A DNA stretch of 64,000 nucleotides from Methanolinea sp. GTDB taxonomy: Archaea; Halobacteriota; Methanomicrobia; Methanomicrobiales; Methanospirillaceae. The translations under genes were made by a program, and so were the position numbers. The notes under the pieces were generated by a model that worked only from the letters and a program-made list of their open reading frames with translations, did not search any database and was not told the origin of the DNA. Every line of letters starts with the position of its first letter. Positions within the stretch are counted from its first letter, which is position 1. The stretch covers positions 187,107 to 251,106 of the forward strand of contig JADFDO010000002.1 in the NCBI GenBank assembly GCA_018262855.1, given 5' to 3'. Positions 23,574 through 24,956 of the stretch are shown one piece after another.

Positions 23574-24673
23574 CAGGCCACCTCAAGGAACCATAGGATG
23601 GCGGAGAGAATGGCAAGGAGGATCCCGCACCCTGCCATGGCAACCATCACCCGGACATACCTGAATATCTCTTGTTTCACCCCGGTCCGCGATGTGTAAG
23701 GGGTGCAGCCCGTGAAGTTGAGTGCCAGGTACGCTACCACAGGCGGAATGATGAGCAGGGGAATGATCCCAGCCACGACATGTGCGAAGGGAACCATGGT
23801 GAATTGTGTTGCACCGTACACCGTAAACGGAAGTGCGACCAGTACCCCGAGAATCAATCCCTTCGTGCTGAAGTCCCTGGTCGGAAGGAACGGGAGGAGC
23901 GCTGGGAAGAGCACAGTTCCTGCCAGGACTGCCGTGACTGCAGCGAGGGATGCAACCGGACCTGCCAGGAAATACAGGAGTATCGCAGCCACGATGGCAG
24001 GCACTGCAGCGTGTACGAGCTCAACGGGAGCGAGTACAACCCGGTCGACAAACGGGAACTGGACCCGCCGCATCTCGGGAGTTGCCATTCTTGTCTTCAG
24101 GTATTCCGGGAGATCCCGGGCACGGACCGGTCCGTACTCCACCCGGAACACGGATCTCCGCAGGACCTGGTGGGCCGAGATGCCCGGAGCGCCGAGCTGA
24201 GGCACAATGACGGTCCGGTGGCGTACCACCGATGCCAGCCCCGTGCAGGATATCCTGTTCACGAGTTCATCGGTCCCGAAGGTCCCCTCCCCGGCCGCAC
24301 ACCAGACGTTGATCCCTTTTGTGTCCAGGACGAGGATGTAGGCGTCAATCCCAATGAGGGCTGACCGCAGTGCGTCGAAGCTGAGCGTGTAGTTCGCCGA
24401 TGCGAAGACCGGTGAGTCGGCTGTCGGATTGCCGAGACGGTAGAGTCCGGGTTTTACCAGGTGACCCATCCGGTTCACACCCCACCGTGCCAGGAAATGG
24501 TCGAACCGATCAACGAAGGTGAGTTTGCTTACTGTGGTCATCGGTTCCGCTGGTTGTGCAGGTGTCATTGTACCGCAGCAGGGAACATCGTCCTGCTGCC
24601 GGGCGCTGGAACAGCATGAGCACGATTGAGTATCAGGCGAGGATTGATTCAATCTGTTCTCACTCCTGCTCAA
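23573..24673 (-). CDS. hgcA: HgcA-type corrinoid protein (cytosolic cap-helix domain + C-terminal TM bundle)
   Basis: FLARWGVNRMGHLVKPGLYRLGNPTADSPVFASANYTLSFDALR...LVLDTKGINVWCAAGEGTFGTDELV, followed by about 5 TM helices. Start is uncertain: TTG 24673 (track), TTG 24652 (GGAGTGA RBS, 8 nt after the upstream stop) or ATG 24568. Confidence 0.85.
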   Translation of the reverse strand: MSRSENRLNQSSPDTQSCSCCSSARQQDDVPCCGTMTPAQPAEPMTTVSKLTFVDRFDHFLARWGVNRMGHLVKPGLYRLGNPTADSPVFASANYTLSFDALRSALIGIDAYILVLDTKGINVWCAAGEGTFGTDELVNRISCTGLASVVRHRTVIVPQLGAPGISAHQVLRRSVFRVEYGPVRARDLPEYLKTRMATPEMRRVQFPFVDRVVLAPVELVHAAVPAIVAAILLYFLAGPVASLAAVTAVLAGTVLFPALLPFLPTRDFSTKGLILGVLVALPFTVYGATQFTMVPFAHVVAGIIPLLIIPPVVAYLALNFTGCTPYTSRTGVKQEIFRYVRVMVAMAGCGILLAILSAILWFLEVA

Positions 24674-24956
24674 GGTCCTGCACGAGGGGCTTGAGAATTC
24701 CCTGGACCATTCCTGACAGGTTGCCGACTTTCATGAGCGCAAGGCAGCAGACCTCTCCCTCACGTTCCCAGCTAATCAACGCGAGCTTATCACCGGTTCC
24801 AATCCCGGCTTTCTGCCGGACTTCCTTGGGGAGCACCATCTGGCCCCGTTCATCAACGCTCAGAACAGCTTCCACGTTGCAGCATGTACCGGGGACACAT
24901 CCGTGAGATGGTTCACCGGATGACACAGAGGCATCTGGGATTCTCTTTTTCACCAT
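24660..24956 (-). CDS. AbrB/SpoVT-type DNA-binding protein with two vicinal Cys pairs
   Basis: VDERGQMVLPKEVRQKAGIGTGDKLALIS is a swapped-hairpin AbrB/MazE-type signature. Cys content: HGCVPGTCCNVE at the N-terminus and EVCCLAL at the C-terminus. Confidence 0.75.
   Translation of the reverse strand: MVKKRIPDASVSSGEPSHGCVPGTCCNVEAVLSVDERGQMVLPKEVRQKAGIGTGDKLALISWEREGEVCCLALMKVGNLSGMVQGILKPLVQDLEQE

Follow-up and report, generated by a model that had tools for sequence, protein, structure and literature searches.

The hgcC locus and its protein

The stretch of DNA analysed here, 64,000 nucleotides from Methanolinea sp. (contig JADFDO010000002.1 of assembly GCA_018262855.1, positions 187,107 to 251,106; hereafter the window), carries the mercury-methylation genes hgcA and hgcB and, directly upstream of them, the small gene hgcC (24660..24956, minus strand), whose product and its possible regulatory role are the subject of this work. 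The gene order on the minus strand is hgcC, hgcA, hgcB, acr3 and a gene for a DGC-domain protein. HgcA, the corrinoid protein of mercury methylation (23573..24673, minus strand, with the start taken at TTG 24673), matches NF040863 with 441 bits (cut-off 275), and HgcB, the 2[4Fe-4S] ferredoxin of the same system (23241..23573, minus strand), matches NF040864 with 113.6 bits (cut-off 99); the start of hgcB overlaps the stop of hgcA. An ACR3-family arsenite efflux transporter is encoded 160 nt downstream of hgcB (21899..23080, minus strand; TIGR00832, 375 bits), and after a gap of 117 nt there follows a four-Cys, putatively Zn-binding DGC-domain protein (21404..21781, minus strand; PF08859, 61.3 bits). 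Genes of the DGC type are often found in ars clusters (bioRxiv 10.1101/2022.10.17.512643).

The original prediction, made from the letters of the window, had singled out a 98-residue protein with an AbrB/SpoVT signature and two vicinal cysteine pairs, first in the hgcAB string and overlapping hgcA, as a possible metal(loid)-responsive regulator. The open reading frame proved to be exact and its place at the head of the string was confirmed. The overlap, which amounts to 14 nt between the 3' end of hgcC and hgcA, depends on the TTG start at 24673, and this start is credible because the Cys-rich N-terminus that it adds is conserved in archaeal HgcA. In the window this extension (24570-24673, minus strand) contains SCSCCSS...PCCG ahead of the corrinoid-domain core, and it recurs in the archaeal HgcA proteins of loci L003-L067. 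Elsewhere it shows CxC/CC motifs, with a repeated TTSCQCQEE unit in L004, and the HgcA of Nitrospirota is without it. The extension may serve as a Hg(II)-capturing tail.

The hgcC product, MVKKRIPDASVSSGEPSHGCVPGTCCNVEAVLSVDERGQMVLPKEVRQKAGIGTGDKLALISWEREGEVCCLALMKVGNLSGMVQGILKPLVQDLEQE, has cysteines at positions 20, 25, 26, 70 and 71. Its best match is NF040962, 'HgcAB-associated protein HgcC' (116.9 bits, cut-off 70), where residues 25-93 align to positions 1-69 of the 70 of the profile. The best Pfam model is PF04014 (MazE_antitoxin; 29.8 bits, cut-off 24.7), and TIGR01439 is also matched above its threshold (32.4 bits, cut-off 28.3). A profile of 103 homologues, compared with the PDB, retrieved the N-terminal DNA-binding domains of SpoVT (2ro5, E=4e-4), archaeal Sso7c4 (5itj and 2l66) and AbrB (1z0r). 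The AlphaFold2 monomer has a mean predicted local distance difference test score (pLDDT) of 68.9, with 80-87 in the core and 60-74 in the C-terminal helix. The top Foldseek matches of this model were AbrB-N, SpoVT, Sso7c4, C68 and MazE; for 1yfb, 1z0r, 2w1t and 5itm the probability was 0.96-1.0, with a target-normalised template-modelling score of about 0.6 and a root-mean-square deviation of 3.1-3.6 A over some 50 residues. With so small a domain, modelled as a monomer, the Foldseek E-values were no better than modest (0.02). In the Pfam and NCBIfam scans only AbrB-type models were matched, and there was no match to the models of ArsR/SmtB (HTH_5/HTH_20), MerR or ArsD. By sequence and predicted fold, HgcC is thus a member of NF040962 and, as had been anticipated, of the AbrB/SpoVT fold.

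The family is large. At 90% identity we collected 2417 clusters of homologues (E≤1e-3), and at 50% identity 407 clusters, 205 of which had E≤1e-10. The number of homologues, together with their conserved N-terminal start M-x-K-K, makes hgcC a real gene far beyond chance. The AbrB core is the best-conserved part of the protein: in the alignments D35, R37, G38, Q39, P43, K44 and R47 are nearly invariant, which gives the family an invariant signature of its own, D-x-R-G-Q...P-K..R.

According to the AlphaFold model and the homologue profile, residues 1-23, including Cys20, form a disordered tail, and Cys25-Cys26 lie immediately N-terminal to strand beta-1. The second pair, Cys70-Cys71, is situated in strand beta-4, near its start and inside the beta-3/beta-4 hairpin of residues 57-77, and a conserved C-terminal helix follows at 80-96. 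Both pairs named in the original prediction are therefore real, but 'EVCC' does not flank the fold at its C-terminus, as had been supposed: it lies within beta-4, where it is aligned to 'VIL' of SpoVT.

Two methylation systems as partners of hgcC

The genomic context of hgcC was compared in two sets. A scan of GTDB with one genome per species yielded at least 565 species with a relative, of which the best 80 loci (81 genes) were used; the second set consisted of 80 metagenome contigs that were found with a bacterial-type query. The best 80 GTDB loci span Methanomicrobiales, Methanosarcinales, Methanocellales, Nitrospirota, Dehalococcoidia, Syntrophia, Thermodesulfobacteriota, Zixibacteria and Gemmatimonadota. 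The gene downstream of hgcC is hgcA for 64 of the 81 GTDB genes and arsM for 14, with two contig ends and one other gene. On the metagenome contigs it is arsM in 57 cases and hgcA in 13, with eight contig ends and two other genes. Taken together, hgcA (77) and arsM (71) account for 148 of the 151 informative loci. The single deviating GTDB gene is itself a second hgcC copy, divergent to an hgcC-arsM pair, and in the two deviating metagenome loci (L108 and L110) a crotonase gene is inserted and arsM lies further downstream.

The downstream protein of about 275 residues is the arsenite methyltransferase ArsM (NF008823, 340-370 bits, cut-off 263), and in most loci its gene is spaced at -21 to about +70 nt from hgcC. 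The HgcC proteins linked to arsM also pass NF040962 (106-128 bits), and hgcAB is absent from the fetched flanks of their loci (L043, L057, L060, L064, L066, L069-L078 and L081-L160). The curated name 'HgcAB-associated' thus misdescribes a large part of the family, as it is applied to companions of arsM. Moreover, 15 of the 80 GTDB loci have an ACR3 homologue at no more than 5 kb from hgcC, and so does the window. The HgcC family is a dedicated companion of two known, mutually unrelated metal(loid)-methylating systems. An association with metal genes had been part of the original prediction; it turned out to be near-absolute, and wider than had been guessed.

In a neighbour-joining tree the window protein falls within one large archaeal clade that is linked to hgcA, whereas among the bacterial proteins hgcA-linked subclades, at least four in number, alternate with arsM-linked ones. 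In 144 of 149 cases a protein and its nearest neighbour in the tree have the same type of partner. Since partner type is interleaved in the tree, the partner must have switched several times.

Two loci show unusual arrangements. In a Methanoregula genome (L069, 4454-5297) two divergent hgcC-like genes share one intergenic region with TCWGA repeats; one copy is followed by arsM, and the other has a Tyr at the equivalent of Cys26 and no methylation gene downstream. In L108 (284-679, minus strand, and 1069-2650, plus strand) a canonical ArsR with a CVC motif is divergent from the hgcC-like gene, behind which a crotonase-family gene and then arsM are found. As L108 has both, regulators of the ArsR and HgcC types can share one locus.

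The context also bears on the name under which the gene is commonly found. In Zhang et al. 2023 (PMC10349881) a 'TA gene' resembling AbrB/PrlF/MazE was described, which directly precedes hgcA, chiefly in the methylators among the archaea, and a putative regulatory role was proposed for it. Many members of the family are labelled 'antitoxin PrlF' by JGI/KEGG, and MazE_antitoxin is, as mentioned, the best Pfam model. HgcC could then be an orphan type II antitoxin (MazE/PrlF-like), with hgcAB merely co-regulated with a toxin-antitoxin module. However, no toxin gene was found beside hgcC in about 160 loci: where the downstream gene is not hgcA or arsM, in the other three informative loci, a toxin gene is missing as well. 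In addition, the C-terminus is a short, conserved, predicted helix and not a long, disordered, toxin-binding tail, and the name derives solely from the shared AbrB fold. The antitoxin reading of HgcC is effectively refuted by the missing toxin partner, and we grant it hardly any probability.

A candidate operator at the hgcC promoter

In nearly all loci TTCTGA/TCAGAA elements are repeated upstream of hgcC. Exact pairs of the form TC[T/A]GA-N4-TC[T/A]GA occur 73 times in the 16.2 kb upstream of hgcC in the GTDB loci, versus six times in 700 kb elsewhere, and several of these six are really hgcC promoters with a misplaced start; the enrichment is about 500-fold. The metagenome set, which is independent, has 35 exact pairs in 17 kb upstream versus none in 267 kb elsewhere. 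The distances between successive pentamers reveal a clear periodicity, with 9 bp (73 cases), 18 (18) and 27 (6) in the GTDB loci and 9 bp (35), 18 (20), 27 (10) and 36 (4) on the metagenome contigs. The array is present with either partner, hgcA or arsM. The loci with a long gap between hgcC and the partner, which were checked for a second array in that gap, have none.

In archaea and bacteria alike, the array is placed on the core promoter. The consensus of the archaeal loci, T(c/t)wGATTTTTCTGATTTTTCTGAAAAgTATAAATA, comprises three 9-bp units and abuts the conserved TATAAATA. The last unit ends four bases before the TATA box and therefore covers the position of the B recognition element (BRE). 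In the bacterial arrays the units are found within and just downstream of a promoter of the TTGACA-17 bp-TATAAT type, overlapping the -35/-10 elements.

In the window the candidate HgcC operator (25003..25025, minus strand) matches the archaeal consensus, with a degenerate TTAGA at 25025-25021 followed at 9-bp spacing by TCTGA at 25016-25012 and TCTGA at 25007-25003. This is the sole exact TCWGA-N4-TCWGA pair in the 64 kb. The putative archaeal TATA box, AATAAATA (24991..24998, minus strand), which aligns to the archaeal TATAAATA, lies 4 nt downstream of the last pentamer, and from it to the ATG of hgcC the distance is 34 nt; the AAAG between pentamer and TATA box is a candidate BRE position. 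A weak operator-like match with two mismatches, CTCTGAAAATCCTGAAA, was noticed at 16679-16695 (minus strand), about 300 nt upstream of a gene for a pyridoxal-phosphate-dependent decarboxylase (16988-18463, plus strand); it is probably due to chance.

A motif that tracks one DNA-binding family across two domains and two partners, and that sits on the core promoter, is a classical sign of an autoregulated repressor and its operator. From this pattern we infer that HgcC itself binds the array and acts as a repressor. The binding of DNA by HgcC is well supported in silico, if indirectly, and HgcC is very probably a DNA-binding autoregulator of the hgcAB and arsM operons.

The likely mode of binding is that of other proteins of the AbrB fold. 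AbrB, SpoVT and Abh of Bacillus, Sso7c4 of Sulfolobus and MraZ have an N-terminal beta-beta-alpha-beta-beta domain in common with HgcC, and the latter is expected to bind, as such proteins do, in multimeric form to short repeated pentamers at a spacing of approximately one turn. The TGGNA-N5 repeats of AbrB and the GTGGG-N5 repeats of MraZ are comparable to the HgcC array, although the HgcC repeat measures 9 bp and not 10 bp. HgcC also differs in that a short C-terminal helix replaces the C-domain of AbrB or the GAF domain of SpoVT, and in that Cys26, Cys70-Cys71, the Cys-rich tail and the D-x-R-G-Q loop signature are found, among these proteins, in HgcC only.

A different function was considered for the same protein, namely that of a metallochaperone or accessory subunit whose thiolates take up Hg(II) or As(III) for delivery to HgcA/HgcB or ArsM, in the way in which ArsD serves ArsA, with DNA binding absent or secondary. 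The translational coupling and overlap with hgcA and the tight spacing to arsM suggest stoichiometric co-production, and the tail is flexible and Cys-rich, with up to eight N-terminal cysteines in some members (P0176 and P0266). There is also the history of ArsD, a protein with vicinal Cys pairs that was described first as a regulator and later as a chaperone. A pure chaperone would, however, leave unexplained both the nearly invariant AbrB DNA-binding core and the 9-bp-periodic motif on the gene's own core promoter in both domains. We therefore regard a role mainly as chaperone as quite unlikely, while a dual role of HgcC, as regulator and chaperone, is possible.

Conserved cysteines and a possible thiol-based switch

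The original prediction had named a lack of conservation of the cysteines, like a lack of association with metal genes, as a possible refutation. Both checks came out in its favour, and the cysteines are among the best-conserved residues of the family. Among the 120 closest homologues, mostly from Methanomicrobiales, Cys70 is found in all 120, Cys26 and Cys71 in 119 each and Cys20 in 115. Of the 162 locus-encoded members, genomes and metagenomes combined, 157 have an equivalent of Cys26 and 161 have the pair Cys70-Cys71. In 150 diverse representatives at 50% identity the counts are 85 for Cys25, 114 for Cys26, 114 for Cys70 and 128 for Cys71. CC...CC is the commonest exact pattern in this diverse set (54/150), and many of the sequences that depart from it come from metagenome open reading frames with an evident truncation or frameshift. 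Of the two vicinal pairs that had been put forward, the C-terminal one is thus conserved, whereas the N-terminal one is variable in the clade of the window itself, where Cys25 occurs in 32 of the 120 closest homologues. The difference follows the partner gene: Cys25 is present in 65 of 71 arsM-linked versus 18 of 78 hgcA-linked members, and the N-terminal tail of the hgcA-linked archaeal members usually has C-x-C-x5-6-C instead of a vicinal pair. The solved relatives of the AbrB/SpoVT fold, as compared through the profile, have Ile or Leu at the positions of residues 70 and 71 and no N-terminal Cys. The thiols of HgcC are therefore a family-specific, strongly selected addition to the fold.

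Vicinal Cys pairs are typical ligands of As(III) and Hg(II). They occur in ArsD (Cys12-Cys13-Cys18), in CgArsR (Cys15-Cys16 with Cys55'), in AfArsR (Cys95-Cys96-Cys102) and as the C-terminal Cys-Cys of MerA and HgcB. In CgArsR a flexible tail at the N-terminus and the second subunit each contribute some of the thiolates. By analogy, the same chemistry may be expected of HgcC, a Cys-Cys pair complemented by one or two further thiolates, although the scaffolds are unrelated. In the case of ArsD, which has a thioredoxin-like fold and whose model finds no match in HgcC, the vicinal cysteines alone are held in common.

These considerations lead to a model in which HgcC is an AbrB-fold autorepressor that is released by the binding of a metal(loid) to its thiolates. 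The apo-protein, as a dimer or a higher oligomer (tetramer), would sit on the TC[T/A]GA array at its own core promoter and occlude TBP/TFB in archaea or RNA polymerase in bacteria. A thiophilic metal(loid) would bind to Cys70-Cys71 of beta-4 and, on the N-terminal edge of the barrel, to Cys26, with or without Cys25 and Cys20. Presumably, given the topology of AbrB and SpoVT, both Cys segments lie at the end of the barrel opposite the DNA-contact loops and beside the extra C-terminal helix; metal binding could then disturb oligomerisation and cooperative binding. Occupation of the site would in this way weaken DNA binding, or the oligomerisation and cooperativity of HgcC. As(III) would be the likeliest ligand, with Hg(II) or a related soft species as a possibility. 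As(III) is favoured because it is the substrate of ArsM, because ACR3 co-localises with hgcC, because there is a precedent in Pseudodesulfovibrio mercurii ND132 (see below), and because Cys-Cys is a typical ligand of As(III) and Hg(II).

De-repression would in this methanogen concern hgcC-hgcA-hgcB and probably acr3 and the DGC gene, and in many bacteria hgcC-arsM. The gap sequence between hgcB and acr3 (160 nt) contains no convincing promoter or operator, and none is evident in the 117 nt between acr3 and the DGC gene. Furthermore, a tblastn search with two ArsR sequences among the queries found no homologue of ArsR or ArsM in the 64-kb window. The two downstream genes may therefore join the HgcC-controlled unit, and HgcC is the sole regulator candidate that adjoins hgcAB and acr3 there. 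Around this string the window contains a molybdate/tungstate-type ATP-binding cassette transporter (SBP_bac_11, permease and ATPase; 18735-21135, plus strand), in convergent orientation to the DGC gene, and, divergent from hgcC, a hybrid response-regulator/histidine kinase (25681-27771, plus strand).

Conserved cysteines may also serve other ends. They could hold a purely structural Zn(II), so that the effector of the regulator, if any, would be another one, such as S-adenosylmethionine or S-adenosylhomocysteine (SAH), a methylated product or a partner protein. Cys4 sites are commonly structural Zn sites, the conserved C-terminal helix (80-96) could be a separate element for effector binding or oligomerisation, and hgcAB transcription in ND132 also responded to SAH-related treatments (bioRxiv 10.1101/2022.10.17.512643). 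On the other hand, structural Zn is usually bound by CxxC knuckles and not by Cys-Cys pairs, and no other structure of the AbrB fold needs Zn. The N-terminal cysteines moreover vary in spacing and in number, from one to eight, which a flexible trap for soft metals could tolerate but which would be odd in a structural site. A merely structural role is on these grounds quite unlikely, though conceivable.

Alternatively, HgcC could be a DNA-binding autoregulator that senses redox state or oxygen by a disulfide or an Fe-S cluster, so that the oxygen-sensitive corrinoid/ferredoxin system, like anaerobic ArsM, would be expressed under reducing conditions only. With its four conserved cysteines each monomer would be suited to the ligation of a cluster or to thiol-disulfide chemistry, the hosts identified are without exception anaerobic (methanogens, Dehalococcoidia, Syntrophia, Nitrospirota and Thermodesulfobacteriota), and HgcAB needs low-potential electrons. 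Yet a general redox sensor would be expected beside many kinds of genes, whereas HgcC has only two partners, both metal(loid) methyltransferases, which are unrelated in cofactor and in oxygen sensitivity. Adjacent cysteines are, besides, poor ligands for a single Fe-S cluster and typical of As and Hg sites, and the genes that co-localise with hgcC include arsenite pumps of the ACR3 type. Redox sensing is in our view unlikely.

Several points weigh against the metal(loid)-released autorepressor. Metal binding, DNA binding and regulation all rest on in-silico comparison. The structure was modelled as a monomer only, at the mean pLDDT given above and with 23 disordered N-terminal residues, and a site shared by the N-terminal and beta-4 cysteines is therefore a proposal. 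The four conserved cysteines might just as well be ligands of Zn or of an Fe-S cluster, or work as a redox disulfide switch, and the N-terminal vicinal pair is not constant in the archaeal clade to which the window belongs. Of the four Arg residues by which AbrB of B. subtilis contacts DNA, just one is kept by position in HgcC (Arg47). The exact pentamer pair is found in just 59 of 81 and 31 of 71 promoters, the rest having degenerate versions, and another factor could bind the TCWGA array. Many loci, especially those of Methanoregulaceae, are related, so that the counts do not represent independent events. Finally, hgcAB expression has often been reported not to respond to Hg, and Hg(II) may for that reason not be the signal of HgcC.

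Weighing these points against the conservation of the cysteines, the association with hgcA and arsM and the conserved TC[T/A]GA array, we find the idea of a metal(loid)-responsive AbrB regulator supported, with the response to the metal itself as a prediction and the ligand as a putative one. For the full model, an AbrB-fold autorepressor released by metal(loid) binding to thiolates, the balance tips modestly in favour. We see about an even chance that HgcC represents, more broadly, a class of AbrB-fold thiolate sensors of As(III) and soft metals in archaea and bacteria that acts through 9-bp TCWGA arrays as a common switch of ArsM and HgcAB.

A functional parallel exists for such a switch. 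To our knowledge, tests of a regulator of hgcAB have so far been confined to a single ArsR-like protein from a single relative of Desulfovibrio. This protein, the four-Cys, ArsR/SmtB-type ArsR2 (DND132_1054) of P. mercurii ND132, is encoded upstream of hgcAB and co-transcribed with it, in the same operon position as hgcC; As(III) and As(V) raise the hgcAB transcripts, and the rise is mediated by the regulator (bioRxiv 10.1101/2022.10.17.512643). Canonical ArsR repressors likewise head ars and arsM operons, as hgcC does. ArsR2 and HgcC are both small and Cys-rich; ArsR2 is an autoregulator, and its arsenic-responsive effect on hgcAB transcripts has been demonstrated, whereas autoregulation by HgcC is suggested by the promoter array. 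The two proteins have no sequence similarity: ArsR is a winged helix-turn-helix protein and HgcC a swapped-hairpin beta-barrel of the AbrB type. The most likely mode of action of HgcC is, by analogy, that of a metalloid-sensing autorepressor of the ArsR type, which makes it a functional analogue and not a member of ArsR/SmtB, MerR or ArsD. We know of no AbrB-fold metal sensor that has been described, and none of AbrB, SpoVT, Abh, Sso7c4 and MraZ is known to us to sense metals. Metal-sensing repressors that contact DNA through beta-strands instead of a helix-turn-helix have a precedent in NikR. Unlike HgcC, NikR combines a ribbon-helix-helix with an ACT domain, and its Ni(II) is bound by His and Cys in a separate domain.

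Parts of this picture have been published before. In 112 genomes McDaniel et al. 2020 (PMC7438021) found hgcAB to be immediately preceded by a conserved 'putative transcriptional regulator', which, judged by position and not by sequence comparison, is probably of the same family as HgcC. The placement described there and in PMC10349881, directly upstream of hgcAB, is that of the window gene. The gene family, its association with hgcAB and a putative regulatory role were thus already known, and the idea of a thiol sensor is new. Neither study discusses cysteines, an operator or arsM; the earlier sources on HgcC offer no mechanism and label the protein as antitoxin or hypothetical, whereas here a link to arsM emerges that is, as the metagenome contigs show, at least as frequent as that to hgcAB. 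In the searchable literature (HgcC; AbrB with arsM or arsenite) we found neither a biochemical characterisation of HgcC nor an earlier description of an AbrB-type gene linked to arsM. As the arsM linkage, the conserved set of cysteines and the 9-bp-periodic operator were not found in that literature, they emerge from the present analysis.

The control of hgcAB expression and the purpose of HgcAB are long-standing questions in mercury biogeochemistry, and transcripts rarely track Hg or the production of methylmercury. HgcC is the candidate regulator in the majority of methylating methanogens and in many bacterial methylators that are uncultured, and, if true, this would provide a first handle on the control of mercury methylation in methanogens. 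The question has become testable, with a defined protein, a 30-bp DNA site, specific Cys residues and a short list of candidate ligands. The proposed class would, if true, add the AbrB fold to the known families of metalloregulators, as a new scaffold for a known regulatory principle, and the motif could be used to predict the switching of methylation genes in environmental metagenomes and metatranscriptomes. The arsM operons share with hgcAB this family of Cys-bearing regulators and its candidate operator, which ties mercury methylation genetically to the handling of arsenic. If the model holds, hgcAB in methanogens and in many bacteria would be neither constitutive nor Hg-specific, but wired to a response to arsenic and soft metal(loid)s.

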